Shown: in pieces, positions 17,905 to 51,462 of the stretch
How positions within the stretch are numbered: position 1 is the first letter of the stretch
Layout of the letters: each line of letters opens with the position of its first letter
Source: Marinicella sp.
GTDB taxonomy: Bacteria; Pseudomonadota; Gammaproteobacteria; Xanthomonadales; Marinicellaceae
DNA: 64,000 nucleotides
Direction: 5' to 3'
Assembly: GCA_965230295.1 (NCBI GenBank)
Contig: OZ246001.1
Span: 1,024,001 to 1,088,000 of the forward strand
Position numbers and translations under genes: made by a program
The notes under the pieces: generated by a model
Database searches by the model: none
What the model was told of the DNA's origin: nothing
Seen by the model: only the letters and a program-made list of their open reading frames with translations

Positions 17905-18612
17905 CTAAGGCGTTGATGTGTCAAAAGTTTCCGCAAATATGACATCTGTAAGGATCCTCAAAATTCCTGTTTGGCTGGTATGTGCAGGGTTGGCACAATG
18001 GTAAGGAACCTCACCTACCTCGTTGAATCGAACATAAAATTCCCAGGGAAAGCCGGTTGGATCGGTGTCTGTATTTTGCCCATCGCCTTCACAACCATCG
18101 GCACAAATCAAAGCGTCATCATCGGTGCGGAAATTGTGTTCACCTCCCTGATTATTGAAATAAACCACATCACCAGCTGTTATGGTCAAATCATCAGGAA
18201 CATAGGTGTTATCCACTTGTGCTGATATTTGATGGGTGGTCCCGGTACTGGGCGTTTGCACCACCACCGTTCCGACCATACCAAACTGAACATGTGGTTG
18301 GCATTCATAAGGAATGGTCTCAGGCACCCTGAATGTCACTTCAGCCACCCAAAGATCTGAAGATGGATTACCATTCCCACCATTAGCTTCACAGCCATTG
18401 GCACAACGAAACTTTCCCACTGCATAAACATTGTGGGCACCAGGTCCTTCATTCACCCATCGCACCGTATCGCCAGCCTCAATCACCACCGTTGCAGGAC
18501 TGAATGAGTTGTCTCTCACGGTGACGACATGGGTTCTGGCCATTGAAGTGCCAATCAGCAACAGCGTACTCAAAATGACCCAAATTAGACGATTGATGAT
18601 TACAGGTGACAT
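17905..18612 (-). CDS. Exported tandem cupredoxin (blue copper) protein with C-terminal IFxxxFD tag
   Basis: Signal peptide; two domains, HNV...CQPHVQFGM and HNF...CANPAHTSQ; ends DVIFAETFDTSTP. Confidence 0.85.
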   Translation of the reverse strand: MSPVIINRLIWVILSTLLLIGTSMARTHVVTVRDNSFSPATVVIEAGDTVRWVNEGPGAHNVYAVGKFRCANGCEANGGNGNPSSDLWVAEVTFRVPETIPYECQPHVQFGMVGTVVVQTPSTGTTHQISAQVDNTYVPDDLTITAGDVVYFNNQGGEHNFRTDDDALICADGCEGDGQNTDTDPTGFPWEFYVRFNEVGEVPYHCANPAHTSQTGILRILTDVIFAETFDTSTP

Positions 18613-18789
18613 GTTTGGTCAATACTCAATTTATCTGGCTTGATTCTAGTGGAAATTTAACAAATTAAGTTAAATTTACGCTAAGGATGCAAGATTGACC
18701 AGAGATTTAAACCTGTTGTGTGAACTGATTCTCACAATCTCATGTTCGTTGGTTCTAAATTTAATAACGTCTAAAAGCGTAGAAAAACC

Positions 18790-20586
18790 ATGAACATATT
18801 CGCCAAAAAGTATTACGATGCAAGCCAAATAAAAAAAGCGCCCAAATCATATTCACCGATCAAAACGGATCACAGTAGGCAAAAAACTGCAGCCAAGGGG
18901 TTGTCATTATCCACCCATCAACCACAACTCAAAGGCACTTTGCCAACACCCAACCTGACCCACCGAATCATGAGCAAGATGGCTTTCGGGCCCAGTGATG
19001 CTGACACCAATCACATCAATTCACTACCAGGTGCCACTGAAATGGATCGAGTCCTGGCCTATATTGATGAACAGCTGGATCCTGCCAGCATAGATGACAG
19101 CGCTGTCGACACGATGCTAACCCAAGGGTTTGCCACTTTGAACAAAACCCAACAACAGTTGTTCCAGGAACACAACCACCTCCCGGATGGAGGCGACATC
19201 CCGTGGGATATACACATCTTACCTGGCAGAGAAACCAGTTACGCTGCATTCATCAGGGGCATCAACAGCAAACGTCAGTTGTTTGAAATGATGGCTGATT
19301 TTTGGCACAACCATTTCAACGTATACCTGGATGGAGACAATGTTCAACCGATGTTCGTGCATTATGACCGTGACGTCATCAGGCCCAATGCCCTGGGTAA
19401 CTTCCGAGACATGCTGTATGAAGTCACCCGATCTAACTGCATGCTTTCTTACTTGGGTAACGGCGTCAATGAACAATCCGCACCGAATGAAAACTTCGCC
19501 AGGGAACTGCTTGAACTTCACACCATCAGCGCCAAAAATTATTATGGCCACATGCCATGGCAAGATGTGCCTACTGATGGCCAAGGCAGACGCGTCGGTT
19601 ATGTGGAAGCAGATGTGGTTGAATTGGCGCGGGCCTTGACTGGTTGGTCTTTTTTTGGTGCCAGTTGGGAAGATTACGATTACTTATATAACCCACCCGT
19701 CAATATCAGCCTGGCTCCTACCGGGCTGTTTTTATTCAGACCTGACTGGCATGACCAAGGAGTCAAGCGGGTGATGGGTACTGACTTTTTTTATGACTCC
19801 AACGACGAAGAAAAAGACCTCAATGACATTTTAGACATGTTGGCTGAGCACCCGGCCACCGCTGAATTTTTGGCCACCAAGTTATGCAAAAGATTCATTG
19901 CAGATGAACCGCCTGCAAACATCGTAACTCAGGTTGCAGATGCCTTACACCAAAACTGGCAAGCCAGTGATCAAATCAAACAGGCCATGGAGGTGTTACT
20001 GAAATCTACAGCGTTTTTAAACACCTGGGGCGAGAAAATCAAACGTCCTTTTGAACGCACCATTGCTGCCATGAGACAGATTGAGTATGGTTTCGATTTC
20101 AACCCCACCAATGAATACTCCAGCTGGCATCATTGGGGGTTTCAAGACTCTGGTCAGCCACCATTTGGCTGGACCTCTCCTGATGGTTATCCTGACTTCA
20201 AGTCTCATTGGTTGGGCGCATCCAGTAACATGTCGACCTGGAAATTCATTCAATGGATCAGCCAATTCAGAGATGGTAATAATAATGACGACCCTTTCAA
20301 CAACATCTTAAACATAACAGCCAGTGGCATTCCAAACGCCAATGACCGCACAGCCAATAACATCGTCAATTTTTGGTATGAGAAGGCTTTGGGTTTTCCA
20401 CCTGAAACAGTCGTCCAGGACAAGTTGGCTGAATTCATGTCATATGATGACAACACCAATCCTGTTGGTACCGATCGTGATACGCCAATAGATATCTATC
20501 AAAATAACTGGCCCGGGTATAACACCGAACGTTTGTTTGCCGTGGTATCAACCATCTTTCTGACAGCTGATTTCAGCTACCGATAA
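18790..20586 (+). CDS. DUF1800 family protein
   Basis: RQLFEMMADFWHNHFNV, IRPNALGNF, PNENFARELLELHT, LARALTGW, HPATAEF, PDGYPD. Confidence 0.92.
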   Translation: MNIFAKKYYDASQIKKAPKSYSPIKTDHSRQKTAAKGLSLSTHQPQLKGTLPTPNLTHRIMSKMAFGPSDADTNHINSLPGATEMDRVLAYIDEQLDPASIDDSAVDTMLTQGFATLNKTQQQLFQEHNHLPDGGDIPWDIHILPGRETSYAAFIRGINSKRQLFEMMADFWHNHFNVYLDGDNVQPMFVHYDRDVIRPNALGNFRDMLYEVTRSNCMLSYLGNGVNEQSAPNENFARELLELHTISAKNYYGHMPWQDVPTDGQGRRVGYVEADVVELARALTGWSFFGASWEDYDYLYNPPVNISLAPTGLFLFRPDWHDQGVKRVMGTDFFYDSNDEEKDLNDILDMLAEHPATAEFLATKLCKRFIADEPPANIVTQVADALHQNWQASDQIKQAMEVLLKSTAFLNTWGEKIKRPFERTIAAMRQIEYGFDFNPTNEYSSWHHWGFQDSGQPPFGWTSPDGYPDFKSHWLGASSNMSTWKFIQWISQFRDGNNNDDPFNNILNITASGIPNANDRTANNIVNFWYEKALGFPPETVVQDKLAEFMSYDDNTNPVGTDRDTPIDIYQNNWPGYNTERLFAVVSTIFLTADFSYR

Positions 20587-20596
20587 GGAGACTAAC

Positions 20597-21925
20597 ATGA
20601 AAAAAATCAACAGAAGAAATTTCCTCAAAGGTACCGGATTGGTCAGTGTCGCAGGATTGGGAGGCCTACAACTTGGCTTCGCCAACACCCTGTTGAAAGG
20701 TGGTTCGGGTGGCTCTGGTCGCGACTTATTGGTCTACGTCTTCCTGAATGGCGGCATGGACGGATTGAATATGGTGCCACCACGCTCAGGCCCAGATTAC
20801 ACCCAATACCGGGACGTTTTACGACCAAATCTACACATACCCAATTCAATGTCGTTGCCACTGAATGGTCAAAACAGTTTTGGCATGCACCCATCCGCAA
20901 CCGGTCTGGCAAACCTGTTCAATGACGACAAAATGGCCATCATCCATGCCACAGGCTTGGTAGAAGCCAACCGGTCACATTTTGAGGCGACCCGATTTAT
21001 GGAATTGGGTTCACAAAGCAGTACATCGTTAGGCTCAGGTTGGTTAACCCGCTACTTTAACTCATCCCTTCATACACCTGATGATGCCGTGATGCCATCG
21101 ATAGTGCCCTCCTATAACAACACCGATGCCGTTCTGGGTGACCCCACAGCTTTGGTGATGGCCAACCCTCAGGAGTTCAGCTTATCCGATGGCCATTGGG
21201 CATGGGAAGACACCATGCAAGATATCCTGACTCAAGTCAGTAACAACCCAACCACTTTAGAACAATTGGTGGCGAATCAAACCTTGAACGCCTCAGCCAT
21301 CATCCAAGCGATCGATTGGGGCAATTACGTGCCGGGCAATAACGCAGTTTACCCTGAAAGCTTTTTCGGCGAACAGTTGAGGACGGTGGCCCAATTGTTC
21401 AAGAATGATGTTGATCTAGAAGTGGCCTATGTACCAACAGGTGGTTGGGACACGCACACCGGTCAAGGCACAGGCACCAGTGGTCAATTTGCTGACTTAG
21501 CCGGCAATTTATCCGATGGGCTTTATGCCTTGTATCAAGACCTGACTGCCTCACACAACGGCAGATTCACCATCGTTGTTCAGTCAGAGTTTGGTCGCAG
21601 GGCTTATGAGAACAGTGACATCAGTACCGACCATGGCTATGGCAACCCGATGTTTGTCATTGGTGACGATGTCAATGGCGGCTTTTACGGCAGCTTCCCC
21701 GGCTTATCGCCACAACAATTGTTTGAAGGTGACGATGTTGATGTGACCGTAGACTATCGTGATGTGGTCAGTGAAGTGTTGATCAAGCGCCAACAAAACA
21801 GGTTCTTGGGTTATATTTTCCCCAACTACAGTGATTACACGCCGTTAGGTGTGGTCAACGGCTTGGACCTACCACCGATTTATGATGTCAATTATGACCC
21901 CATATTTGCCAGTGGCCTTGACTGA
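20597..21925 (+). CDS. Tat-exported DUF1501 family protein with C-terminal IFxSGLD tag
   Basis: NRRNFLK, FLNGGMDGLN, RSHF, GGWDTH, SEFGRR, TDHG, VDYRDV; ends DPIFASGLD. Confidence 0.92.
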   Translation: MKKINRRNFLKGTGLVSVAGLGGLQLGFANTLLKGGSGGSGRDLLVYVFLNGGMDGLNMVPPRSGPDYTQYRDVLRPNLHIPNSMSLPLNGQNSFGMHPSATGLANLFNDDKMAIIHATGLVEANRSHFEATRFMELGSQSSTSLGSGWLTRYFNSSLHTPDDAVMPSIVPSYNNTDAVLGDPTALVMANPQEFSLSDGHWAWEDTMQDILTQVSNNPTTLEQLVANQTLNASAIIQAIDWGNYVPGNNAVYPESFFGEQLRTVAQLFKNDVDLEVAYVPTGGWDTHTGQGTGTSGQFADLAGNLSDGLYALYQDLTASHNGRFTIVVQSEFGRRAYENSDISTDHGYGNPMFVIGDDVNGGFYGSFPGLSPQQLFEGDDVDVTVDYRDVVSEVLIKRQQNRFLGYIFPNYSDYTPLGVVNGLDLPPIYDVNYDPIFASGLD

Positions 21926-21927
21926 CT

Positions 21928-22800
21928 TCACTTGATCTTCCAGGCATCAACCCAACGGGTTGAAACGGGCACCATGTCAAAGTCATTGATCAGACGTTGG
22001 TGAAAATCTGCCAAGTGGGCAGCCCCATAAAAAATGGCGAAAGATTGTGCGTCTTTCGCCATTTCTTTCCTCAAAACGTACAATGCCTTTTTATTTCTTT
22101 CAGCCACCAAGGTAGATCCTTCTGGCCCTTCAAGGGCTTTCATCACACCATCTGAGTTGGCCAATTCTTTGGCCATCAAGTCTTTCAGTGCATTCTGGCG
22201 GTCTGAGGACATCAAAGCCATGATCAAATCAAAATCGCTTGCGGTGGATTGGCCACTGAGTTGTTGTGACAAACTGGCACGCCACAAATTAAATGCCATA
22301 CTGAACAGTGATTCGCCTTTGTCTTCCATACTTTGCTTGAATTCTTCAGGAGTGAAATCGGCATGTACAAAATGTTTGGCCGTATAATCAACTTCCTCCA
22401 TTTGGTAAGACAAACCCAAAACATCTTTCAACCCGGTCTGAATACTGGATAACATGTTTTTACTTTCCACCCCACCTTTGGGAATGTAAGTACCTTCAGG
22501 GGCCACCAACTCATACAACACCTTGTCGTAAGTTTTGAACAAGGCATTCAAGTCTTGGTAATACTGCTTATCACCCACATGAACTGCACCCACCAAATCA
22601 ACGGTTTGTGGACCACCCGCCCTTGGCTTGTATCGCACCACTGACACCTGTAAAGCTTTGTTGCCAGGCTCGTTCACATATTTAATGAATTCAGGTGTTT
22701 CTGCACTGACCTCATCCAACTGATAAGCCAATGCATGGTTTACCAACACAAGAGTCGTTGCCAGAAAGGCGATTTGACAATAAGATTTAAATGTCGTCAT
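21928..22800 (-). CDS. Exported hypothetical protein, possibly TraB/GumN-like fold
   Basis: Signal peptide; LVGAVH, VLYE, ERN, FYGAAH motifs resemble the TraB/GumN superfamily. Confidence 0.6.
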   Translation of the reverse strand: MTTFKSYCQIAFLATTLVLVNHALAYQLDEVSAETPEFIKYVNEPGNKALQVSVVRYKPRAGGPQTVDLVGAVHVGDKQYYQDLNALFKTYDKVLYELVAPEGTYIPKGGVESKNMLSSIQTGLKDVLGLSYQMEEVDYTAKHFVHADFTPEEFKQSMEDKGESLFSMAFNLWRASLSQQLSGQSTASDFDLIMALMSSDRQNALKDLMAKELANSDGVMKALEGPEGSTLVAERNKKALYVLRKEMAKDAQSFAIFYGAAHLADFHQRLINDFDMVPVSTRWVDAWKIK

Positions 22801-22847
22801 ATAGGCTGAAATTACGGTTAACTGATATCAGATGTAAGGGCAAAAGC

Positions 22848-23051
22848 TCAAGCATCAATATCTGGGATCAACATATTTTCATAACAAATCAACATGTCTT
22901 TGATCAATAACTTGCGTTTTTTCAGGCGTTTAATTTTCAACTCATCCACCTCACCTGAATTGATCAACACCCCAATGATCTCATCGAGCTCCCGGTGCTC
23001 GTTTTCTAGTTCTGTCATGCGATGAACAATTTCACTTTGACTTAATGTCAT
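22848..23051 (-). CDS. DUF465 / YdcH family small coiled-coil protein
   Basis: EHRELDEII...IKRLKKRKLLIKD...PDIDA. Confidence 0.88.
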   Translation of the reverse strand: MTLSQSEIVHRMTELENEHRELDEIIGVLINSGEVDELKIKRLKKRKLLIKDMLICYENMLIPDIDA

Positions 23052-23186
23052 GTAATTTCTGAAATAATGATTGATTGTTAGAAAATTTTACCCTATCGCT
23101 CACCACATTTCTCGGTAAATCATCAATATGCTTAAAGACAACAAAAAAATCTAAAACTTGACCACAAACTCAGACACAGAATGGCC
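23050..23186 (+). repeat. 137-bp direct repeat of the ttcA upstream region and 5' end (left, decayed copy)
   Basis: Aligns with 25433-25569; contains ATGCTTAAAGACAAC (ttcA start) then TAA after 8 codons. Confidence 0.88.
23128..23186 (+). pseudogene. ttcA 5' fragment (about 20 codons; premature stop and frameshift)
   Basis: MLKDNKKI* versus [20 protein letters not shown] of the intact ttcA. Confidence 0.75.
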
Positions 23187-23226
23187 GCAACATGAAAGGC
23201 ACTGCTTAATGGCTCATCTAACAATC

Positions 23227-24918
23227 TCATAATGCTTCAATATAATCAAAAAAGGGGTCAACACCATTCATGAAATCATTGTATGTTGGGGCAGTTAAAA
23301 CAACATCAGGCACTAAGTGGTCAGGATCCCCACTGACTGTCTCAAACCTTCGCGTCGAATATTGCACCATTGTCGTTGAATTGTTTAATCTGAAATTCCT
23401 GACTTCTCCAAAATGATTCGGTTTGCCCCCAGTAGGCAGACCAACCAACTGAGCTTGGGTTGTTTGGTCAAACTGTATGGCATTCAACAAGCCCGATGAA
23501 AAAGTTCCTTGGCTAATAATGACAAACAACCGGTTTGGATCATTAAAAGGAGAATTGGATGCCGCAAAAGTAGAAATCCAATTGCTTAACAGAGCCGAGT
23601 TGCCTCCTGTATTACTGCGCAAGTCGACTACAATTTTATTGGGTTGCAGATTGAAAGCTGTGTTTGATAACCGATTCAGAAAATCATTAAAGGGGTCATT
23701 TGATGATTCTACAGCTTGGTTATAGGCAAAATAGAGAATGTCAGAATTTTGAAGGTATGTAAACCAGTAGTTTGCTTCATTTTGTAAATACAGAGGTACA
23801 GGGATATTCAATTCAGAATACACTGAAAACAATTCAGTCATTTGACCAGAGTCCACCGATTTAACCACATGATCAGTTGCAACTCCAAACCGATCGATAA
23901 CTTCGAAACTCGCTTCAGTGGAATCACTTATGACATTCAAATATTCAAGGACTTTGGGGATGAGCATGTAACTCATTGAACGGTACTGCAACCAGGCTGA
24001 ATTTTCATGTGAAATAACCCGCCCCAATTGCTGTTCTATAACTTCAAGATCAACCCCGTTAATGGATTGAATCCTGCTGCCTAAAAGCGACCGGTATTCT
24101 CCTGTCGACTGACTGACAATCAATCCTGTATCAATGCGACTGAGCACCAAGGGAAAACGTTTGCTGTCATCAATCAATACATTGGTATGAGAATCTCCAA
24201 TTAAGGCCACAAGCTCCGAGAAGGCCACATCAATCAATTCGTCAGGCAAAGCATTCAGCTGATTGGCAAGCATGAAAGTTCTGGACTCAAACTCATCTTG
24301 CTGAATCTGATTGAATGGCTCTGGGTGTAAATCAATCAGTTCTGAAGTCATCTGGTTCAGGTCTTCGCTGTTCTTGAGCAATTCTTGAGTACAATTTAAT
24401 GTAGCAATTGAAGTCAATCGAGTAATCGGGTGTGAGCCGGCATCAAACCCTTCTATTTCCGGGAACCAACTTAATGTTCCATCATTACAATCTTCAAACG
24501 TCAATGTGACCCGGCCCCATTCCTGAATGACTACCGACTGTGGCGGCGGCATACTTGGGAAAAAGCCTCCTTCTGTTAAGTATGCTGTTAATTCAATGGT
24601 GTTTTGCTGAACACCACCCAGCCCTGTTAGCCAATATTGTTTCCCTTCATTGTCATATAAAAACCAGGCTGCAAGTATCCTGTTATCATCTAAAAATTCA
24701 ATAAAAATTCCTTGGCCTGAATTATCTGGATCGAAATAAGCACCACTCCAGGTCTGATTCAATAACGGGACTGGATCAGTTTTGATCATGGTGTCAGCAC
24801 GACAATCCAACTCTGAACCAATACAAGGATCACTGGTTAAGTTTGATAGTGCAGGTAAAGCCCAGATAAGCAAGGCCAGACCCCATTTAATGTTTGTGAT
24901 TTTATACATAATCATCAC
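23227..24918 (-). CDS. Exported S41-family peptidase-like protein with N-terminal GxWxDP module
   Basis: Signal peptide; DSHT, VDLRSNTGG, TFSSG, GLPTGG (S41 motifs); N-terminal SGAYFDPDNSGQG domain. Confidence 0.8.
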   Translation of the reverse strand: MMIMYKITNIKWGLALLIWALPALSNLTSDPCIGSELDCRADTMIKTDPVPLLNQTWSGAYFDPDNSGQGIFIEFLDDNRILAAWFLYDNEGKQYWLTGLGGVQQNTIELTAYLTEGGFFPSMPPPQSVVIQEWGRVTLTFEDCNDGTLSWFPEIEGFDAGSHPITRLTSIATLNCTQELLKNSEDLNQMTSELIDLHPEPFNQIQQDEFESRTFMLANQLNALPDELIDVAFSELVALIGDSHTNVLIDDSKRFPLVLSRIDTGLIVSQSTGEYRSLLGSRIQSINGVDLEVIEQQLGRVISHENSAWLQYRSMSYMLIPKVLEYLNVISDSTEASFEVIDRFGVATDHVVKSVDSGQMTELFSVYSELNIPVPLYLQNEANYWFTYLQNSDILYFAYNQAVESSNDPFNDFLNRLSNTAFNLQPNKIVVDLRSNTGGNSALLSNWISTFAASNSPFNDPNRLFVIISQGTFSSGLLNAIQFDQTTQAQLVGLPTGGKPNHFGEVRNFRLNNSTTMVQYSTRRFETVSGDPDHLVPDVVLTAPTYNDFMNGVDPFFDYIEAL

Positions 24919-25276
24919 CTCTCAAAAAAGCCAACACTAACCAAGACGAATATTCAAAAGTGTCTAAAACCGCATGAGGTTTTCCGTCAAGACCCAAGCA
25001 ATCATTGTAAAAAATGTACCCATTAATCTTGAATATTTTGCTCTGTTTTTTTCATTCTTCTTGCGACACTTTCGGCCCATATCTCGTCTTATTTAGTATG
25101 AATCGTACCATTTGTATCTAATAATCATGACCAAAACAATGAATAATTTCAATACAATTATTTAAATACTCACCATTCACTGGTAATTATTTCATGCCAA
25201 AGTGGATTACAAAGTCAATCAGGATTAAGACACATGACTCCAGATTTATGGATGGAAGACACCAAACACCACACTC

Positions 25277-25393
25277 AGACATGAAACACGAACTTGAGGT
25301 CAAATAAGAGTTAGAGGATGCTGGTTTTTTTGTGCAACAAAAAAGAAGGCATTTCTGACCACTCTCCAGAATGGAGCCCCAAGAACATTCCTT
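25277..25393 (+). repeat. Degenerate family-B repeat (3' part)
   Basis: Ends AATGGAGCCCCAAGAACATTCCTT, identical to the 3' end of 12686-12835; contains a TTTTTTGT/ACAAAAAA hairpin. Confidence 0.6.
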
Positions 25394-25432
25394 CAGTTGA
25401 GATGAAGTCACTCCAATCATGATACTTTTGTG

Positions 25433-25569
25433 ATGTATTTTTGAAATAATGATTGATTGTTAGAAAACTTTACCCTATCGTTCACCACATTCCTCGGTAA
25501 ATCGTTAATATGCTTAAAGACAACAGCAAAATCAACCAACTTGAGCATAAGCTCAGGCGTCAAATGGCC
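25433..25569 (+). repeat. 137-bp direct repeat (right copy: functional ttcA upstream region and 5' end)
   Basis: Aligns with 23050-23186. Confidence 0.88.
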
Positions 25570-26319
25570 AAAGCCTCTGGTGATTTTGGCTTGTTGGAAG
25601 CCGGTGATCGCATCATGGTTTGTTTGTCTGGTGGCAAAGATTCCTACGCGATGTTATCGCTGTTGCAATTGATTCAGAAAAAAGCCCCTTTTAAGTTTGA
25701 TTTGCTGGCAGTTAACTTGGACCAGAAACAACCTGGGTTTCCTGAACATGTTCTGCCTGACTACCTGGCAACCCAAAACATCGAACATAAAATCATTGAA
25801 GAAGACACCTATTCGATCGTCAAAGAAATCATTCCTGAAGGCAAAACCACCTGTGGATTGTGTTCCAGATTGCGGCGCGGCATCCTATATCGTGTGGCCG
25901 ATGAACTGAACTGCAACAAGATCGCTTTGGGCCACCACCAGGATGACATGGTCGAAACCTTGTTTTTGAACATGTTTTTCGGTGCCAAGATGAAAACCAT
26001 GCCACCCAAGCTGCTCAGTGATGACGGCCAACATGTGGTCATCAGGCCCATGGCCTACATCAGGGAAAAAGACCTCATCAGCTATGCCGAGTACAAAGCC
26101 TACCCGATCATCCCTTGTAACCTGTGTGGTTCCCAAGAAAACCTGCAACGTCAGGCCATCAAGCACATGTTACAGCAATGGGACCAGATCAACCCCGGGC
26201 GGGTAGACAACATTGCCAAAGCGATGTGTCACATCACCCCTTCTCATATGTGTGATCCAGAGCTGTTTGATTTTAAAGGTTTGTCACAAGAACATTTCTT
26301 AAAACTGATTAAAAACTAA
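25510..26319 (+). CDS. ttcA: tRNA 2-thiocytidine(32) synthetase
   Basis: SGGKDS PP-loop, [34 protein letters not shown]. Confidence 0.97.
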
Positions 26320-27021: not shown

Positions 27022-27066
27022 ATCAGTCACTAAACGAAAGCCTCAAGACAATCATTGCTTAGAAGG

Positions 27067-30000
27067 TCATTGCGGTTCAAATCTGTCGACAAAAATCCCT
27101 TCGACAAAGGGGTAATAAATGCCCATCGTATCTAAATTGCGAGTGCCAATCCAACCACCCCAGACAATCATTTCAGACCCCGTCCATGTGGCTGAATGAA
27201 AGGTCCTGGCTTGGGGCACCCATTCAAGGTCAGTGGGCAGCCAGCGATCTGTACTCGGGTTGTAACTGCCACCGGTGTCGGAATTGCCATTGGTTAAACC
27301 ACCCCAAATGACCATTTCTTTCCCGGTCCAAATATTGGAATTGTAGTTTCTTGCTGTTGGCGCATTTGCCGTTGTCATGGTTGTCCATTCGTCAGTCATT
27401 GTGTTGTACTTGGCTCCTGTGTTTAATGAATCCTGATTGAGCCCTCCCCAAACCATCACTTCACCGTCAAACCAAATTAATTGGTGATGCCTTCTCGCTT
27501 CTGGCGCTCCTGCTGTGTTCATGCTGCGCCAACTGTCTGTGGTCGGGTCATAACGACCGCCCTCGTTGCTTATGACACCCGATAAGCTGCCACCCCAGAC
27601 CACCATTTCATTGTCGGTCCAGACGGCACCGTGATAAAACCTCCCGGCCGGTGCATCCAGGCTGTTGATGGCTTGCCATTGATCCAAAGTTGGGTCATAG
27701 GAACTGCCGGTGTTGAGTGCACCTTGCGCTGAAGAGCCGCCCCAGACAAGCATGTGTTCGCCGTTCCAAACAGCGGTGTGAAACCTTCTGGCAGTGGGAA
27801 CATTGTTTAATGACGTGGGTAACCAAATGTTGTTTAGTGGGTCATAACGCCCCCCTGTGTCTTCATAAGTATTCCATTGCGATCCGCCCCACACGATCAT
27901 TTCAGACCCGGTCCATATGGTGGTGTGCTCATACCTACCTGATGGTGCTTGATTGTTGGTTATTGAAACCCAGCGATCTGTTGCCAGTGAGTAAAGCCCA
28001 CCCGTATCCAGGTAAGAAGTGCCTTTACCACGACCACCCCAAACCAACAGATCATTACCCGTCCATACGGCTGAATGACTGCTTCTTGCTTCTATCGCAG
28101 TTACTGTGTTCGCGGTGATAGGTGTCCAACTGTCTTCTGATGGGTTGTATCGACCACCATCGTCATGGTGTAGCGGAAATGTATCAACTTGACCACCCCA
28201 AACAACCATTTCTACACCAGTCCACACCGCCGTATGATCCTCACGTCTGCCCGGTGCCTGGACAGTAGAAATTCCATTCCAATCATCTGAAACTGGGTTA
28301 TACCTTAAGCCCGAATTCAATATGGTGTAGTTACAGCCTGGGTTATTGGGGATATCAAAACATATGGCACCACCCCACAGAATCAGTTCTTCACCGGTCC
28401 AAATCATCGAATAATTTTTTCTGGAATACGGTTCATTGATTTCCTCACTTATTTGCCAGGTGTCATCCAAAGGATCATAGATGTGTAACCGTGTGTCGAA
28501 TCCAGGACCTCCCCCGCCATAAACCATCATAACATCATCTGCCCATATGGCACCATGGTTATTTCTGGAGGTGATCGGGTTGTTGGCAATTTCAACCCAG
28601 GAATCTGTGCTGGGGTTGTAACGAGCGCCTGAATCAAGGTAACTGGTGACCACCCCATTAACCCGACTCATGCCACCCCACACAATCATGTCTTCTCCCG
28701 TCCACACTGCGGTGTGGAAATGTCTGGGAAGAGGACTGTAGCTTAGCGATGTTGTCTTCCATGTGTCACTCACAGGATCATAAATTCCACCCGTGTTGGC
28801 GGACTCAGACCCGTTTTCAGGAAGTCGCCCTCCCCAGACGATCATTTCATTTCCAGTCCAAACGGTGGTGTGTTGGTTACGTACTTCAGGCGCATTGACT
28901 GCTGACATTTCGCGCCATGTCTTGTGCAAAGGGTTATAACGTTTTCCTGTGTTGTTGACTTGATTACTGATTCCTCCCCATATCAACATTTCAGTGCCTG
29001 TCCACACAGCACTGTGTAAAAACCGTCCCGTTGGCGCATTCTCCATGGTGATCATTTCCCAAGAGTCGCTGGCTGGGCTGTATATACCGCCGGTATTGTT
29101 CAGCTCGTAATCAAAACCACCCCAAATGATCATTTCAGAGCCCGTCCATAGGGCTGAGTGCGCATACCTAGCAGTGGGTTGTTTGGGTGGTTCCCAACGG
29201 TTGCTGATCGATGAATAGTCGGCTTTTTTTGTGGCTTTGCTGTCAATTGCAGTCAATACCAAACTTGACTTAAAACTGGGTAAGGCAATGGGAAAATCTT
29301 GCAGGTTTAACCGTGCCATCCAACTTTCCAGGGATTGCTTTGGCCAAATTAACGATTGGCTGTGAATGGCCTTATCAGTCTTTTGGGTTAACTTTGTGTA
29401 GCTGAATCCTGACTGACTTTCTTCCAACAATGGCCGCTCATTCAGCTTCTCAAACATTCGCTTGAAGTCTGCAGGGCCCAGCTCAATTGTTGCGCCAAGG
29501 TCATATTTACTTTTGTGTTTTGCTTGATCACTGCTTAACAAATAGGTAACTTCACGGGTAACCACATCAGCAGATAATCCCATTGATGTGTCTAAATATT
29601 CATACAACTCATCGGTGGCTCTGTTTTTTAAATCATGATGTATCTCTTCATTGCTGTAATAGCTTTCATTAAGTAGCGAGCTCACCAAATAAGGCCTCGA
29701 CAAACACAAAGCAACTGTCTCAGGGTGATTATCAAGCGTTTGGTAGATTTGCTTCAAAGCATCGGCATCTTTGGTGTTGCGAGACATCCGGTCAATATCA
29801 GCTTGCATCAAGACTGAATTGATTTCAATGCCGAAAACATCAGCCAGAACATGTTGTTTCTTTAAACTCAATAGGGTTTGATGGTGCAGTTCCTGCTCAT
29901 CAAAAACTTCATCAAAGTGTGGTTTTTTTCCATTTTGTTTAGGCCACATTGTGTTTTGCCATTGCAACTTTTTAAGTTGAGTTTGACAATCAACCAAACT

Positions 30001-30242: not shown

Positions 30243-30289
30243 GTGGTTTTGCATATATACCCGCAATTGGGTATTTTGTCATCAATACA

Positions 30290-35769: not shown

Positions 35770-35773
35770 CAAA

Positions 35774-45071: not shown

Positions 45072-45201
45072 GATTTCCTCTATTAGTTATTCTTATTTAT
45101 ATGACTTGCACACGGTCACTGCCACAAGCCCAACCGGAATGGTTATTTATATCACAAATTGAATGTTTTGCTAAGTAGGCTATACAGCACAATGCAAAGA
45201 T

Positions 45202-46014
45202 TTATTCGAAAGCTTCTCGCGTATCAATGTTATACCTGGCACCGGTGGCCAATACATGTAGTTTCATTCCAATCAAGGTGATGCAGTCACGGTGCCTGGC
45301 ATCATGCATGGAAGAGTGTGACAGTTCTGCAGGATCCACCACAGTGATGGCACCCGAACCCACCACCTCAAAAACACCATCCGGACCAATGAAAGCTGCG
45401 GTGTCTTCATCTATACCAATGCCTGAAACAAACGGGTTGTATGACAACGCGGTCATCAAGCGGCCGATGCGGTCTCTTTGCCTGAAATGTTGATCGATGA
45501 TCACTTTGTTGGTCAATCCCAGCCCCGGAGCCATGGTGGCACCGTCTTCTGTCGGCGTAGGCCCGGTACGCCCGCCGGCGATCATGTGTTCTGACATGAT
45601 CGCAGCTCCGGCCGAAGTACCGGCCACATGCACCCCAGCAGCATTCATAGAGCGAATCATTTTGGCCACAGGTGTGCCACCCAAAATGGTCGACAAGCGT
45701 AACTGATTACCGCCTGTGATAAAAATACCCGTGGCTTTTGATAAAGAATCCTGGATTTCTTCTTTGAAACAATCTTCTCTTTCATCCACAGCAATGAATT
45801 TAGACTTGGCTCCCATGTTTTCAAAGATTTCAACATATCGGGGACCAGTGTCTTCGAGTTCCGAAGCGGTTGGTATCACCAGAATTTTGCCATCTGCTCC
45901 TCCTGACAGTTGACAAAATTTTTCTAAAATTATCGGTTCGTTGACTTTTTCTTCAGCACCACCGATGGGTATAACAAAACCGCGTTCGACTTGATCAATA
46001 TTGGGTGAGGGCAT
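45202..46014 (-). CDS. cphB: Cyanophycinase (peptidase S51)
   Basis: IGGAEEK, PTAS, TGGNQ, GTSAGA, DQHF, GIDEDT; immediately upstream of cphA. Confidence 0.95.
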   Translation of the reverse strand: MPSPNIDQVERGFVIPIGGAEEKVNEPIILEKFCQLSGGADGKILVIPTASELEDTGPRYVEIFENMGAKSKFIAVDEREDCFKEEIQDSLSKATGIFITGGNQLRLSTILGGTPVAKMIRSMNAAGVHVAGTSAGAAIMSEHMIAGGRTGPTPTEDGATMAPGLGLTNKVIIDQHFRQRDRIGRLMTALSYNPFVSGIGIDEDTAAFIGPDGVFEVVGSGAITVVDPAELSHSSMHDARHRDCITLIGMKLHVLATGARYNIDTREAFE

Positions 46015-46023
46015 AATGATTCC

Positions 46024-47196
46024 TTAATTATTGTTGTGTTCGAATCCACCAAATATCAAAGTTTGGTGATCTTTTTGATGCCATTGGCCCATGGCCATGA
46101 CGTCTTGTATGTTGTGCTGTTGATCCAGAACCACCAAGTCAGCATCAAACCCGACTTCGATTTGACCTTTGCTTTTGAGACGCAACAGTTCTGCCACATT
46201 TTGAGTGAACGCTGGCAACACTTGATGCGCTGGCAGACCCTCAGCCAACAAAGTTTGTAAGGTCTGGCTCAAGGCTTCACAGCGACCAATATCCATGTGC
46301 AACATTTCACCTTGCTCGTTGAAATGTGGCAAACAGCCACCACCATCAGATGAAATGGTGAATCGGTCCATAGGACAACCAGCTGCTTGGAACAACTTGA
46401 AAGCATCTGCTGCAGTCCAGGCATCTTCATCATCAGCCACTGGGAAAGCGGTGACATCAATGTAACTACCTCGGCGGCTCAGTTCGCAAGCTTGTTCAAA
46501 CAGGGCTTTGTTGCGGTTACAGTGGGTTGGGTTCAACACCCTGGCAGGAATTTCAGTTTGATCCAATAATGCATTGATCAAATCCAATCCTCGACGGCCA
46601 TCACCCAAATGAAAATGAACCACCCCAGCTTTGCGGGTCATCAAACCTGCCACATGGGCATCGCCGGCTATCCGTGCCACTTCATCGAAAGTGGGCTGGC
46701 TGGAACGGTGATCCGAGATGGCCAATTCGCCCACGCCCAAGATGGGTTCAATGTGAACAATGTCACTCTTGGCTGAACCCGTTAAGGTGGTCAATGGCAC
46801 ATGATATCCTCCGGTATAACAGAAGGCACTGATGCCGGCTTCTCGCAACGCATAGACTTGTGCCAACAAAGAAGACGTGCTGCGGGTTAAGTCATCGGTT
46901 CCCAACAAGCCCACCACTGTGGTCACACCAGCACGGGTGTAGTCACTCAAATGAACGGCTGGCACTTTACTGGCAAACCCATCTTCCCCGCCTCCACCAG
47001 TGATGTGGGCATGCCCATCAATCAAACCCGGAATCAAACGAGCGCCTTGATAGTCGGTATCTGTGGCCAATAAGTCTGCAGCAATTTCTGGCAAGCTTGG
47101 ACCCATGTAAACAACCTTTCCAGCCGCAACCAACACATGACAGACACCTAAATCTGCCGGTGCATATACGTGAACATTTCTTAATAAATGGATCAT
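46024..47196 (-). CDS. iadA: Isoaspartyl dipeptidase (beta-aspartyl peptidase)
   Basis: DGHAHITGGGGEDG, GLLGTD, GELAISDHRSSQPT, HLGDG, PTH, SSDG. Confidence 0.94.
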   Translation of the reverse strand: MIHLLRNVHVYAPADLGVCHVLVAAGKVVYMGPSLPEIAADLLATDTDYQGARLIPGLIDGHAHITGGGGEDGFASKVPAVHLSDYTRAGVTTVVGLLGTDDLTRSTSSLLAQVYALREAGISAFCYTGGYHVPLTTLTGSAKSDIVHIEPILGVGELAISDHRSSQPTFDEVARIAGDAHVAGLMTRKAGVVHFHLGDGRRGLDLINALLDQTEIPARVLNPTHCNRNKALFEQACELSRRGSYIDVTAFPVADDEDAWTAADAFKLFQAAGCPMDRFTISSDGGGCLPHFNEQGEMLHMDIGRCEALSQTLQTLLAEGLPAHQVLPAFTQNVAELLRLKSKGQIEVGFDADLVVLDQQHNIQDVMAMGQWHQKDHQTLIFGGFEHNNN

Positions 47197-47366
47197 CCGA
47201 ACTCTAAAACATCATTCTAAACAGGTCGACGAAACACCTGCAAATCATGCCATACATGGCCAAACGGGGTATGGTAACCGATTGTTCATATATTGACCAC
47301 CATTCCACCCATTTTTCAGTGCTCGCTGCAGTTGTTTATCAAGGCTGTAGGGCACATACTTGAAAC

Positions 47367-47894
47367 ATGTATAATCAAATTCATTGGATCGATACCTCAG
47401 ATGAATCAATGACTTTAAAAGCCCAACTTGAATTTGCCCAATTTAAGGACAATGATTTACCTCAAATCATGCCCATTGAAAATCAAATTTACCCCAACCC
47501 TTGGTCTGAAAAAGTCATGAGAGACTGCATCAAGGCAGGTTACCAATGCATCAAGGGCATTGATCCCAGGCAAACTGATGACATCATGTGCTATGCAGTG
47601 ATGATGGTTGGTTATCAAGAAACCAATTTACTGAACATTGGCGTCAATCCGGCATTCAAGAAAATGGGTTTGGGCAGCCAGTTATTACATCGTTTGTTGT
47701 TAATCAGTCGGATCAACCACGCCAAACAAATGTGGCTTGAAGTACGCGCCAGTAATCAAGCTGCGCTGAACCTGTATCAAAAGTTCGGTTTCAAAGAGGT
47801 GGGCTTGAGAAAGAATTACTACCAATACCAAGACCCAACAGGAAAGAACATCAAAGAACATGCCATTTTGATGTCCAGGAAAGTCATGAAATGA
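47367..47894 (+). CDS. rimI: Ribosomal protein S18 alanine N-acetyltransferase
   Basis: IENQIYPNPWS, LLNIGV, LEVRASN, LYQKFGF, RKNYY, EHAILM; start may be 47409. Confidence 0.9.
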   Translation: MYNQIHWIDTSDESMTLKAQLEFAQFKDNDLPQIMPIENQIYPNPWSEKVMRDCIKAGYQCIKGIDPRQTDDIMCYAVMMVGYQETNLLNIGVNPAFKKMGLGSQLLHRLLLISRINHAKQMWLEVRASNQAALNLYQKFGFKEVGLRKNYYQYQDPTGKNIKEHAILMSRKVMK

Positions 47895-47912
47895 TCAGGG
47901 TTGGATTGATAT

Positions 47913-47943
47913 AAAAAAAGCCCACCTTAAAAGTGGGCTTTTT
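47913..47943. terminator. Bidirectional intrinsic terminator
   Basis: A7-GCCCAC-CTTAAAA-GTGGGC-T5. Confidence 0.88.
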
Positions 47944-47967
47944 ACTGGGATTTCAATCAGTCTGGAT

Positions 47968-50900
47968 TTAATCAAAACCATCTTTGAAGATGAGATCAAA
48001 ATCGAAAGTTACAAACAACACAAAACCATCATGATCAGTCGATCGCAATGACGTGGTGTCATCGTCTTCAAAATTCACATTGGCATCTGCTTGTCCACGC
48101 ACAAACTGCATTTCATTCAGATTCATCAAACCGGCATCGTTCATGATGACGTTGTCTAATGACTGTGCAGAACCTCTGAAAATGAACGAATACTGCTGAT
48201 CTGCAGGCAAGGTCTGAATGCCTTGGGTTAATGGATCGGCAGAAAATTCAGGCTCTGACCACAACAAATTATCCGCATCAACTGCCGTACCGGTGATTTG
48301 ACCAATCACATCGACATAGCCATCAGTAAATTCAAATGCATTGAAGTCACCAATCACATACAAAGACACATCAGGATCTTCGTCGATGATTGAACGGGCC
48401 ATTAAAGCCACTGAATTGGCCTGTTGTAGTCGTTTACTGCGCACCCGATCTCCATCGACGGCATCATCGATACTGCTTCTGGATCGCTGGTGCACTGTCA
48501 ACACATTGATTGGCAATGTACCTCCCGGTAATGTCACATCGGCTTGTAAGCGCAAGGGCGGGCGGTCGTGCAGTAATGAACCATCAAAAGTATTGATGTC
48601 AGCCGCACCCAATTGAGTGATCGTGACATTACTCAATAAATCGGCGCGGTACAAATAGGCCACATTGATGCCACCTTGATCATTGCCTGCAATCAATTCG
48701 GCGGTATAGGTTGGACCACCTGCTGTGGTGATGGCATTGATCAAATCAAACAGTACAGTGATTCGCTCAATTTCTTGCAAGCCAATGATGGTTGGAGACT
48801 TCATGTCATTGACAAAGTAATTACCCAGTTTTTGTAACCTGGCAGCGTATTCCGCCGGGTCAGCAATTTGGTCATCATCTTCAGGCTCAGGGTCATTGAT
48901 GTCATTGAACAACCTGAATAAATTGGCAGAGCCAATGGTGAATTCCGTAGGCAAGGCATCACGTACCGCACCTGGAATCACATTTTCATTGATGATTGTG
49001 AGCACCGAAGGTTGCAACTCATAATCACCAAAACCGTAACTCAGAACGCCTTGGGCCGAAAACTCGGTCCCTGCTGACAATGCTTGGAATGGCAAGCCCA
49101 AAGCTTCCACACTCATTTCAATCAACTCAGGATTACCATCAAATACAGGTAAATTTGGTAAGCCGGGGAAATCAATGCCTGGTTCCCTGAATGCCCTGGA
49201 AGAGCCCGCTTTGATCACTGCATCATCACGGTCATTCCCAAAGAACCCAGCCGATGCTGCACTGACAAAGGCTTGTGGCATATTAAAATGCATGCCTTCA
49301 TAACACTCAAAACCCAGTGACTCACTGCCACAAGGGAACATGGTTGGGTCCGTTGACGGGAAAGTGTCATCCAAAACGATTACCTCAGGTAATGGATTTC
49401 CTGAAGAATCAACGGTCACCACAAGGCTGCCAGGGTTGGCAAATTCTGTGAGGTCAAAGAACTCTACAATGTCTCCAGTGACATCAACCTGATCTCCCAC
49501 TGCCACCATTGGTGCGCCACCAGTAAACACAAAAATCCCACTTGAAGTTAATGGGTCTACATCATTACGCCCATCAGGGGTTTGCATATAAAAACCATTG
49601 GTGTCTAACGCCGTAACGATGTTATCCAAAGTAGTGACTGCCTGACCAGCATAAGGAGAAGCCAATCCATTGCCTTGGATTTCAAAAATTTCTACCTCAG
49701 GGAATCCAGCGCCAAATTGCATCACGAAATTATCACCGCCTGTGCCATCACCGTTGCCATCAAGTTGATCTACTGAACCATCCAAATCGGTGACCTCTGC
49801 AGCCAATAAAGTCAGGGTACAGGTGGTGCCATTAGGCAAGTCCGCATCCGGGTTCAAGACCACTTGTGTGGCGTTGGACACTGGTAAACCAGTAAAAGTG
49901 ATTGGAGCGGCATCACAGGTCAACGTGGCTGCACCAGCACTTGCGTCAACAGCTTCAGAAAAATTGATGGTGATGTCCGTGTCTAAAGCCACCCCTGAAT
50001 CATTATCTGCTGGTGTGGTTGTATTCACACTGGGTGGCAAGTCACCCATGCCCAAGCAACCACCAAAGGAACTTCCATCCGTCAATGTACCTGGTGAAAA
50101 CAAGGTACCTCCACTGCCGGCAGCTAAGCTGTGTTCAACGTATGCGACACCTGTGATGTCCGGTTCCAGATTCAATGACTGATTGTTACCACCCTCTGCT
50201 CCGTAAGTGTGTGTGGCCACATCACTGACTCCGTCATTGATAGTGATCGTGTCTCCACCATTGTTCAAGCCAATAAAGCCACCACTGGCAATTTGCACCA
50301 CAGAATTGCCAAATAAACCAGTGGGTGTACCACCACCAAAGACGACCACACTACAGTCTGAGGGTATGACTGTTGCGGCAGGAAATGTATGCCTGACCTG
50401 TACAGCATCTGATAAAGTCCAGCCTGAAACATCTAAATCTGCACCAGAATTGTTGTAAATTTCAACAAACTCGTCATCTGATCCATCACGGACTCCATCG
50501 CCATTGGCGTCACCTGACAAGCCACTGGCAGGATCGGCTTGAAACTCGTTGATGATGACTGGCTGGGTGGCTGATTCAACGTTAAAACTGAAGTTAACAT
50601 CGGCTGTCATGTTATCTGGCATGCCGTCCTGATCAGTCACCTCAGCTGCCACCACAACAACGTCACAGCTGCCATCAAATGGCAGGTCTGCATCCGGAGT
50701 AATGACCACTGAATTGCCCGATGCAGGTAAGCCTGTGAAGGTTTGTGTCATCGCATCACAAGTCAAAGTAACCGCATCAATGGTGGCATCAACTGACTCA
50801 TCAAAGTTGATCGTTATCTGTGTATCAACTGCGACATTGGTTGCACTGTCAGCAGGATCAGTGGATGTCACAGCTGGCGCTGTATCACCACCTCCTGAAC

Positions 50901-51462
50901 AGCCACCGAAACTGGTGCCGTCAATGCCGGTACCAGGAGAAAATAAACTGCCACCTGAACCAGTGGCTGTGCTGTGTTCAGTGAAAGTACCAGTGATGTC
51001 AGGATCTCTGGTCACTGATTGATTGTTGCCACCTTCACTGCCATAAATGTGCGAGGCCTGATCAACTAAACCGTCGTTGACAGTTATGGTATCACCACCA
51101 TTGGTTAATCCAAGGCCTCCTGTAGAAGCCGTTTGCACCACTGCATCACCGAAGGTGCCAGTAGGTGTTCCACCACCAAAAACCACCAAAGAACAACCAG
51201 CAGGGATCACGCTTGATGCCGGAAATGTATGCCTAACCAGTGCCGCATCTGACAAAGTCCACCCAGACACATCCAAAGCCGAGCCTGTGTCGTTATAAAG
51301 TTCAATGAACTCATCTTCAGTCGCATCCCTCACGCCATCACCATTGGCATCGCCGGTGATGTCTCCGGCAGGATCGGCTTGAAACTCATTGATAACTATG
51401 GAATTGCCCGCTTGTGAAATTATGCTGGTAAAAACCAGCACCAACATGGATAAGATCCTCAT
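47968..51462 (-). CDS. Exported ExeM/NucH-like nuclease: 2x(lamin-tail + Ig-like) + OB + EEP domain, C-terminal IFKDGFD tag
   Basis: Duplicated VINEFQADP...EFIELYN and TDPAD...ITINF modules; IFEIQGNGLASPYAG, GFYMQTP, SGIFVF; GLQE, RPPL, GDFN, LD, TDHD; ends DLIFKDGFD. Confidence 0.88.
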   Translation of the reverse strand: MRILSMLVLVFTSIISQAGNSIVINEFQADPAGDITGDANGDGVRDATEDEFIELYNDTGSALDVSGWTLSDAALVRHTFPASSVIPAGCSLVVFGGGTPTGTFGDAVVQTASTGGLGLTNGGDTITVNDGLVDQASHIYGSEGGNNQSVTRDPDITGTFTEHSTATGSGGSLFSPGTGIDGTSFGGCSGGGDTAPAVTSTDPADSATNVAVDTQITINFDESVDATIDAVTLTCDAMTQTFTGLPASGNSVVITPDADLPFDGSCDVVVVAAEVTDQDGMPDNMTADVNFSFNVESATQPVIINEFQADPASGLSGDANGDGVRDGSDDEFVEIYNNSGADLDVSGWTLSDAVQVRHTFPAATVIPSDCSVVVFGGGTPTGLFGNSVVQIASGGFIGLNNGGDTITINDGVSDVATHTYGAEGGNNQSLNLEPDITGVAYVEHSLAAGSGGTLFSPGTLTDGSSFGGCLGMGDLPPSVNTTTPADNDSGVALDTDITINFSEAVDASAGAATLTCDAAPITFTGLPVSNATQVVLNPDADLPNGTTCTLTLLAAEVTDLDGSVDQLDGNGDGTGGDNFVMQFGAGFPEVEIFEIQGNGLASPYAGQAVTTLDNIVTALDTNGFYMQTPDGRNDVDPLTSSGIFVFTGGAPMVAVGDQVDVTGDIVEFFDLTEFANPGSLVVTVDSSGNPLPEVIVLDDTFPSTDPTMFPCGSESLGFECYEGMHFNMPQAFVSAASAGFFGNDRDDAVIKAGSSRAFREPGIDFPGLPNLPVFDGNPELIEMSVEALGLPFQALSAGTEFSAQGVLSYGFGDYELQPSVLTIINENVIPGAVRDALPTEFTIGSANLFRLFNDINDPEPEDDDQIADPAEYAARLQKLGNYFVNDMKSPTIIGLQEIERITVLFDLINAITTAGGPTYTAELIAGNDQGGINVAYLYRADLLSNVTITQLGAADINTFDGSLLHDRPPLRLQADVTLPGGTLPINVLTVHQRSRSSIDDAVDGDRVRSKRLQQANSVALMARSIIDEDPDVSLYVIGDFNAFEFTDGYVDVIGQITGTAVDADNLLWSEPEFSADPLTQGIQTLPADQQYSFIFRGSAQSLDNVIMNDAGLMNLNEMQFVRGQADANVNFEDDDTTSLRSTDHDGFVLFVTFDFDLIFKDGFD

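Follow-up and report, generated by a model that had tools for sequence, protein, structure and literature searches.

In Marinicella sp. (Gammaproteobacteria; Xanthomonadales; Marinicellaceae; assembly GCA_965230295.1, contig OZ246001.1) about one hundred exported proteins of unrelated folds carry the same nine-residue peptide, here called the tag, and across the order the number of tagged proteins follows one of two type II secretion systems (T2SS), T2SS-2. The genome consensus of the tag is D-[LV]-I-F-[AKE]-[DNS]-[GD]-F-[ED]. It was noticed in the window, by which we mean the whole stretch of DNA that was analysed (64,000 nucleotides, positions 1,024,001 to 1,088,000 of the contig), where a first-pass annotation had described it at the C-terminal of four proteins and suggested a sorting signal. 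We consider it probable that the tagged proteins are cargo of T2SS-2. The fuller explanation, in which they are T2SS-2 cargo and the tail is the selection handle that is read at outer-membrane transit, is put forward tentatively.

The four tagged proteins of the window, all putative cargo, and their tags as read from the translations are the following (positions in the window):

17905 to 18612, minus strand: tandem cupredoxin, 235 amino acids, Sec-like N-terminal by eye, matches to the plastocyanin family
17920 to 17946, minus strand: cupredoxin tag DVIFAETFD, residues 223 to 231, followed by TSTP
20597 to 21925, plus strand: DUF1501 protein, 442 amino acids, Tat signal TIGR01409, Pfam DUF1501
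21896 to 21922, plus strand: DUF1501 tag DPIFASGLD, residues 434 to 442, up to the stop codon
27067 to 30114, minus strand: Kelch/beta-propeller protein, 1015 amino acids, Sec-like N-terminal by eye, matches to Kelch families
27076 to 27102, minus strand: Kelch tag EGIFVDRFE, residues 1005 to 1013, followed by PQ
47968 to 51462, minus strand: ExeM/NucH-like extracellular nuclease, 1164 amino acids, NF033681, with LTD, Big_5 and EEP domains and a Sec-like N-terminal by eye
47971 to 47997, minus strand: nuclease tag DLIFKDGFD in its canonical form, residues 1156 to 1164, up to the stop codon

All four C-terminals were re-read from the translations and are as the first-pass annotation gave them; three of the genes (cupredoxin, Kelch and nuclease) lie on the minus strand, a detail that it did not include. 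Its assignment of export signals to all four proteins, one of them Tat, also stands, with the Tat signal of the DUF1501 protein scoring 18.7 bits against the NCBIfam cut-off of 16.7 and the other three N-terminals judged Sec-like by eye. The end of the cupredoxin reads DVIFAETFDTSTP, and its tag is a somewhat degenerate version of the consensus of its orthologues. In the Kelch tag Arg replaces Gly, and the same variant is found in the orthologue of the window nuclease from family f7 (genome G056), which ends in DALFEDRFESP. Here and below, G, f and g numbers are our codes for genomes, families and genera. The window is not a special cluster of tagged genes, since its four genes in 64 kb compare with a genome average of 1.7, a difference of about twofold only.

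The Marinicella genome is one contig of 4,008,074 bp with 44% G+C, for which an approximate set of 3466 genes was used. The consensus of the first-pass annotation was found in the last 20 residues of 64 of these genes, where 0.04 are expected from composition, and nowhere outside the last 20 residues, where 1.1 are expected. When the tails were shuffled (200 shuffles) the mean was 0.06 matches and the maximum was 1. Chance is thus excluded as the source of the terminal motif, and the case that the annotation itself had named as refuting, a motif no commoner at C-terminals than elsewhere, is not what the genome shows. A stricter form of the pattern, D.[ILV]F.[DNS][GDSN]F[DE], gave 72 terminal matches and one elsewhere, and a looser form, D-x-[ILV]-F-x-[DNS]-[GD]-F-[DE], was found in 110 open reading frames (ORFs). 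In 61 of these 110 the motif is the very end of the protein and in 49 it is followed by 1 to 17 extra residues.

The gene set contains 108 tagged genes, which were grouped by BLAST into 73 families. In a Pfam sample of 49 tagged proteins (the 4 of the window, 37 taken at random with one per family, 3 picked and 5 small) 51 Pfam families were matched at E <= 1e-5, among them peptidases M14, M28 and M64, endonuclease I, the ExeM-type nuclease and DUF1501, together with LTD, cadherin-like, FG-GAP, MAM, beta-helix, CotH and 'choice-of-anchor I' families. A signal-peptide-like N-terminal was found by a crude hydrophobic-stretch test in 95 of the 110 tagged ORFs, compared with 1095 of 2325 background ORFs. 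A stricter heuristic missed 22 tagged proteins, with obvious false negatives, as most of these have signal peptides by eye. Tat motifs are present in 3 of the tagged proteins and a lipobox in 8. The enrichment for signal peptides that the annotation had suggested as a check is therefore seen, and its claim that the tag is specific to exported proteins with unrelated folds, Tat cargo included, is borne out over the genome.

The tag appears to be a free and flexible peptide that lies outside the fold, as judged from the model of the cupredoxin. The AlphaFold2 model of this protein has a mean pLDDT of 90.9 and its last strand comprises residues 215 to 221, while the tail (222 to 235) is predicted as coil, along which pLDDT drops from 61 to 49. 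In the aligned cupredoxin orthologues a tail of the form S-D-x-I-F-x-N-G-F-E follows the last strand in 28 of 28. The position of the tag is less uniform than the annotation had it. The C-terminal location holds in this genome (64 against 0 for the annotation's consensus), but in relatives the tag is also seen at the mature N-terminal and at internal sites. Among 30 unique instances from five other genomes, 26 are C-terminal, with 0 to 15 residues after the motif, 2 follow directly after the signal peptide and 2 are internal. Since N-terminal and internal copies occur, a free C-terminal carboxylate is not required.

In the Marinicella genome we saw only two internal copies, both outside the window (positions in the genome). 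One is in a 1970-amino acid protein with five DUF7933 repeats (3172793 to 3178705, plus strand), in which the canonical motif stands at residue 1872 and some 90 residues follow. The second copy is in a 954-amino acid BNR protein (3566529 to 3569393, minus strand), where 'PDLIFAGGFEAP' stands at residue 637, before an Ig-like domain.

The secretion machinery of the Marinicella genome includes three secretins, namely PilQ (with PilMNOP) and those of T2SS-1 and of a second, canonical system, T2SS-2. The relevant loci, all in genome positions, are:

857 to 868 kb: T2SS-1, a complete Xps-like operon gspE-F-G-H-I-J-K-L-M-(N)-D
855496 to 856917, minus strand: fam208, a T2SS-1-linked gene for a protein of about 470 amino acids with a signal peptide and conserved cysteines, outside the window
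654 to 660 kb: T2SS-2 gspC (with PDZ), gspD, gspE and gspF, outside the window
2.608 to 2.611 Mb: T2SS-2 gspG to gspK, outside the window

GspD, E, F, G, I and K of T2SS-2 score above their NCBIfam cut-offs, and GspC of this system (GspC2) has a T2SSC and a PDZ domain. GspL and GspM of T2SS-2 were not located in the genome. Three features of T2SS cargo were found here: export first by Sec or Tat, a complete T2SS encoded in the genome, and cargo that co-occurs with the machine.

This co-occurrence carries the main finding. In 201 genomes of the order T2SS-2 was scored by an orthologue of its secretin, GspD2, and tags were counted with a broad pattern, D-x-[ILVMF]-F-x-[DN]-x-F-[DE], which gave 4492 matches against 55 for the control (at most 3 control matches per genome). 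GspD2 was matched at E <= 1e-60 in 140 of the 201 genomes and GspC2 in 131. Six or more tags were counted in 126 genomes with T2SS-2 and in 3 without it, whereas fewer than six were counted in 10 genomes with T2SS-2 and in 62 without it; the median is 28 matches with T2SS-2 and 0 without. Two of the three genomes that have the tag only are incomplete (90% and 77%). By family, the presence of T2SS-2 and the median number of matches are:

f1: T2SS-2 in 25 of 25, median 50
f3: T2SS-2 in 8 of 8, median 44
f4: T2SS-2 in 24 of 25, median 26
f7: T2SS-2 in 24 of 24, median 10
f9: T2SS-2 in 15 of 15, median 27
f11: T2SS-2 in 23 of 24, median 23.5
f2: T2SS-2 in 1 of 25, median 0
f8: T2SS-2 in 2 of 24, median 1
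f12: T2SS-2 in 7 of 24, median 0

The pattern repeats within families and even within a genus. The sole T2SS-2-positive genome of f2 (G136) has 14 matches, and in f12 GspC2 and GspD2 are present in exactly the 7 tag-positive genomes (30 to 152 matches) and in 0 of the 17 others. In genus g42 one genome (G095) has T2SS-2 (E 9e-155) and 33 matches with a control of 0, and another (G079), which kept T2SS-1 and fam208, has only paralogous secretins and 1 match against a control of 2. In family f8 T2SS-1 was kept, as was fam208 (23 of 24 genomes), and T2SS-2 is missing from 22 of 24; the median there is a single match, so that the tag goes less closely with fam208 than with T2SS-2. For one tagged protein the f8 orthologues have the canonical tail in 2 of 5 genera and lack the otherwise invariant Phe in 3 of 5, which fits relaxed selection and could be decay after loss of the reader or else a variant. 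In two Dokdonella-like genomes tagged genes directly adjoin gspC2. Profiling genomes for machinery that co-occurs with the tag had been suggested by the first-pass annotation, which proposed a role in outer-membrane transit and knew of no machinery. T2SS-2 can now be proposed as this machinery, with a reader molecule that is a candidate only, and the role in transit gains support that is correlative in kind.

Only one order of Gammaproteobacteria (Lysobacterales/Xanthomonadales as delimited in GTDB) has the tag, and matches outside it stay at noise level. This was measured with a strict back-translated DNA pattern, which keeps Ile and Gly/Asp/Glu fixed and so undercounts lineages with Leu, Val or Met in place of Ile, or with a different residue where Gly stands, as is evident from the f7 nuclease orthologue and its Leu and Arg. 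With this pattern 123 of the 201 genomes of the order were matched and the reversed control gave 0; outside the order, in the same class, 9 of 397 genomes had one match each and the control gave 1. When all species were scanned for the motif with a stop codon right after it, at least 119 stretches were found, and among the 80 matches listed are Marinicella, Dokdonella, Rudaea, Aquimonas, Pseudofulvimonas, Pseudomarimonas, Wenzhouxiangellaceae and many metagenome-assembled genomes (MAGs) of Lysobacterales and Rhodanobacteraceae. Of those listed only two single matches are from elsewhere and outside Pseudomonadota, one in a Thermoanaerobaculia MAG (L106) and one in a Cytophagia MAG (L134); these exact matches of motif and stop may be due to chance.

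How could such a peptide act? The cargo would be exported by Sec or Tat over the inner membrane and would fold in the periplasm with its tail exposed. A component of T2SS-2 would then bind the exposed tail, select the cargo and hand it to the secretin, so that the tag would be an addition, particular to this order, to a T2SS that is ordinary in other respects. The natural first candidate for the reader is the PDZ domain of GspC2, since domains of this type recognise short peptides at protein ends through strand addition and can bind internal hairpins as well. It may take up the tail as an extra beta-strand or in the form of a hairpin that turns at D/N-G. The near-invariant D/N-G would favor a tight turn, and the hairpin mode would tolerate short extensions and N-terminal placement. 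A complex prediction of GspC2 residues 55 to 288 with a 40-residue tag segment gave a score of 0.01, which carries no weight for or against binding. That the tag is the first linear and transplantable T2SS signal, read by the GspC2 PDZ domain and routing about 100 folded proteins to one of two T2SSs, is the most far-reaching form of this proposal and one that we regard as doubtful.

Several observations weigh against a selection handle for T2SS-2. All the support is correlative, the counts are over related and non-independent genomes with no correction for kinship, and cargo and machine would vanish together even if the tag had another reader. Four of the 140 GspD2 matches are partial (about 1e-71) and come from one tag-free Xanthomonas-like genus; they were not counted as orthologues. 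Tags also persist where T2SS-2 is missing. Genome G146 (f8, 97% complete) has only paralogous secretins and 11 matches, of which 9 lie within 7 residues of the stop codon and look genuine, and in G007 two C-terminal tags and one N-terminal tag remain without T2SS-2. In genus g40, to which G146 belongs, the T2SS-2-positive G181 has only 3 matches. Nor is T2SS-2 sufficient, as the 10 positive genomes with fewer than six matches (G188 with 0, G085 with 2), most of them small, indicate. Elsewhere, canonical T2SSs with a GspC PDZ domain are known to do without such a tag (PMC7949064, PMC12369372). The tag would also be an atypical PDZ ligand. A canonical ligand has a hydrophobic last residue and a free carboxylate, whereas the tag ends in D/E, is extended in 49 of 110 ORFs and has N-terminal and internal copies. 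Finally, every tag-bearing genome that can be judged also has the module of T2SS-1 and fam208, which is thus a possible partner.

This module leads to the rival that survives best, although we judge it rather unlikely: the tag would serve surface or S-layer docking after secretion, with the proteins held non-covalently by fam208 or by its anchoring glycan or lipopolysaccharide (LPS), and T2SS-2 would be merely the export route for most of them. The family is found, together with pairs of an extracytoplasmic function (ECF) sigma factor and a Ser/Thr kinase, among the gene families that are enriched beside tagged genes. The Marinicella genome has 11 fam208 paralogues (for example at 233751 to 235193, 494636 to 497468 and 2432775 to 2436986), and docking would fit the 4 of 11 that abut tagged genes and the one whose tail resembles the tag. 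Searches of Pfam, NCBIfam and PDB sequences gave no match for fam208; its relatives are publicly named 'hypothetical protein' only, and its Atlas neighbours are 'hypothetical' or 'cell surface protein'. The best fam208 homologue lies downstream of T2SS-1 in 12 of 12 genomes from six families, in the order gspE to gspD, a small lipoprotein gene, fam208 and then genes for a PpiC-type peptidyl-prolyl isomerase and an ABC-2 transporter. This conserved position fits the description of the S-layer protein NpdA in its published report, where it has a signal peptide, lacks conserved domains and has a mass of about 52 kDa when mature, the npdA gene is downstream of a 12-gene gsp cluster, and orthologues are given for Wenzhouxiangella, Dokdonella, Tahibacter and Rudaea (PMC10765051). 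Based on this likeness fam208 is probably an NpdA-type S-layer protein family, an identity for which the public names gave no confirmation and which counts against docking to that extent. If it is correct, T2SS-1 would be a dedicated S-layer exporter.

The distribution of fam208 speaks on both sides. It is present in 120 of the 123 genomes with a strict-pattern match, the 40 genomes of f2 and f12 without both modules total only 3 matches against 5 in the control, and f8 genomes, with fam208 and T2SS-1 and no T2SS-2, keep a few genuine tags. Yet the fam208 profile is matched in 157 of the 201 genomes. With a threshold of 3 or more strict-pattern matches, 74 fam208-positive genomes fall below it compared with 54 for GspD2; f8 has fam208 in 23 of 24 genomes and still a median of 1 match, and G079 has fam208 and T2SS-1 and no tags. 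NpdA is also reported from numerous lineages beyond the order (PMC10765051), in which the tag does not rise above noise. Three T2SS-2-positive genomes have no detected fam208, namely G126 and G141, in both of which the T2SS-1 secretin lies at a contig edge just where fam208 would be expected next, and G176 (82% complete), so that these three apparent exceptions are due to assembly gaps or incompleteness. As the sole partner of the tag fam208 was rejected, since it is broader than the tag and fits it more poorly than T2SS-2 does.

Docking would also explain placement of the tag at either terminus, and it fits the surface-sorting domains that stand at the position of the tag in relatives, such as 'choice-of-anchor I' and the type IX secretion system (T9SS) domain of P0077, a distant relative of the cupredoxin. 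In Wenzhouxiangella AB-CW3 no protease activity was reportedly released to the medium and the authors infer outer-membrane-anchored proteases; these proteases, which may or may not bear the tag, are reported as cell-bound (PMC7691419). Were the tag a docking tag, it would be a new and very small way to hold enzymes on a Gram-negative surface, usable for display.

Another hypothesis, which we consider improbable, is that the tag is a processing or quality-control signal, either a pro-sequence that is removed at maturation or a degron that clears unsecreted cargo, for a periplasmic PDZ-protease of the Prc/CtpA or DegP/DegS type. A terminal and unstructured tail would suit this role, and the varying length past the motif (0 to 17 residues) would match a leaving group. 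DegS reads C-terminal peptides, and the PDZ domain of GspC2 resembles that of DegS (NF008147, E 8.9e-7). However, N-terminal and internal copies of the tag exist, and housekeeping proteases of this kind are almost universal, in contrast to a tag that is limited to one order and goes with T2SS-2. The only S41-type candidate that was tested, a peptidase gene between tagged genes of the window (23227 to 24918, minus strand) that also served as a negative control for the co-occurrence, does not track the tag and was rejected as its reader, being present in 2 of 8 genomes of f3, in 12 of 24 of f8 and in the tag-free G023 and G079.

Most of the order-wide matches to the S41-type protein cover only an N-terminal module of about 130 amino acids (residues ~52 to 186). 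Many different proteins per genome match this module (tens of first-look candidates), for which there is no Pfam match, and a full-length relative was seen in one other genome only (G174).

That the tag has no sorting role, and is a lineage-specific structural cap or a linker remnant that spread with a secreted-protein family, would fit a motif that comes right after the last strand with no linker, but it is very improbable given 73 unrelated BLAST families and 51 Pfam families in 49 proteins, a tail that is predicted to be unstructured and off the fold and is kept in 28 of 28 cupredoxin orthologues, 0 non-terminal matches where 1.1 are expected, and the disappearance of the tag together with a secretion system.

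The tag was also compared with known signals, as the first-pass annotation had already separated it from several of them. Tripartite signals have a hydrophobic helix and a basic tail, and here the proteins end 0 to 17 residues past the motif with neither; the annotation was right that the tag is not of the PEP-CTERM, GlyGly-CTERM or LPXTG type. PEP-CTERM/exosortase, IPTL-CTERM and LPXTG/sortase signals share its position and similar 'choice-of-anchor' cargo, but they need the transmembrane helix and the basic tail. It was also right in setting the tag apart from the C-terminal domain (CTD) of T9SS. Like the tag, this domain (TIGR04183/PF18962) is a signal at the C-terminal that dozens to hundreds of unrelated proteins per genome carry after export by Sec, and it is tied to one outer-membrane secretion machine. 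It is however a folded unit of ~70 to 100 amino acids from Bacteroidota and relatives, which is cleaved and whose cargo is attached to LPS, whereas the tag is found in Gammaproteobacteria with T2SSs and is nine residues of predicted coil (pLDDT 61 to 49). PF18962 was found neither on the nuclease nor among the 25 most frequent of the 51 Pfam families from the 49 sampled proteins. Type I secretion takes cargo without Sec or Tat signals, in contrast to the Tat signal of the DUF1501 protein, the Sec-like signals of the other three and the 95 of 110 signal-peptide-like N-terminals. The beta-signal of outer-membrane proteins differs as well, since the tails here end in D/E or in extra polar residues and belong to soluble enzymes and binding domains.

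Tags like GlyGly-CTERM are typically found on nucleases of the ExeM/NucH type. In the GlyGly-CTERM/rhombosortase system (for example VesB of V. cholerae) a C-terminal tag on Sec-exported T2SS cargo decides its surface fate (PMC12889589); that tag has a motif, a transmembrane helix and a basic tail and is cut by a membrane protease, unlike the nine residues here, which have no helix and also occur at the N-terminal. A second likeness is to PDZ-dependent T2SS secretion (EpsC, OutC), in that the GspC of T2SS-2 also carries a PDZ domain. According to PMC12369372, the GspC PDZ domain selects a subset of T2SS cargo (the EpsC PDZ domain and the Ig-fold of VesB), and VesB is the only known substrate that is wholly PDZ-dependent, with a signal within its folded Ig domain. 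The known signals are structural or composite and not a linear peptide (PMC12369372, PMC7949064), and one fully PDZ-dependent substrate in V. cholerae contrasts with about 110 proteins here that share one linear motif and for which PDZ binding is only a proposal.

The annotation had left room for an already characterised signal, and none was found. The tag matched no Pfam or NCBIfam model, and when the four proteins of the window were searched against NCBIfam with E values up to 1, no family of sorting signals was hit. Literal motif strings matched no paper and other spellings gave unrelated acronyms only, and topic searches, which did not cover supplementary files, found no description of the tag. 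A linear peptide that is tied to a T2SS and common to about 100 proteins is new to the literature as far as found, and the association with T2SS-2 and the synteny of T2SS-1 and fam208 are new.

One of the questions that has existed for decades in the field is how a T2SS chooses its folded substrates. The prevailing view is that the signals are structural and differ by substrate (PMC7949064, PMC12369372). Here an entire order labels a sizeable secreted proteome, which in some genomes exceeds 100 proteins, with a single short linear peptide, and the presence of this peptide goes with that of one T2SS. Should it be the handle for recognition, the choice of substrates can be tested directly. Either way, with a handle or with docking, the secretome of Marinicella, Wenzhouxiangella, Dokdonella and relatives is predictable from sequence.

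A few further observations concern genes near the tag. In the window the DUF1501 gene has a DUF1800 partner gene (18790 to 20586, plus strand, DUF1800 family match), and in this pair (18790 to 21925, plus strand) the tag is C-terminal on the Tat-exported DUF1501 protein. In a Dokdonella-like genome (G070, L007) the tag is at the mature N-terminal and the sequence after it is DUF1800-like by eye only. A single tag per presumed DUF1800/DUF1501 complex may be enough.

A small tagged protein of about 90 to 105 amino acids with a signal peptide is encoded about 8 kb from gspC2 (667129 to 667401 of the genome, plus strand). It has a duplicated G-x-Y/F-x-L-x-G-x-I-G-Q ... G-G-F-W motif with the tag after it, and such proteins were seen in four families, also at L008 (G184), L020 (G045) and L243 (G146), the last in a genome without T2SS-2.

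The ECF/kinase pairs beside tagged genes were rejected as a sorting machine and are read as regulators of neighbouring secreted-protein genes. The genome has 16 Ser/Thr kinases of about 900 amino acids with TPR repeats, many of them paired with an ECF sigma factor (PF07638), and for 7 of the 16 pairs a tagged gene is found no more than three genes away (p about 0.004), which looks like ECF regulation under the control of kinases. Examples of these kinase loci, all outside the window, are at the following genome positions:

1157202 to 1160583
1522272 to 1525769
2290581 to 2293972
2520369 to 2523807
3244198 to 3247427

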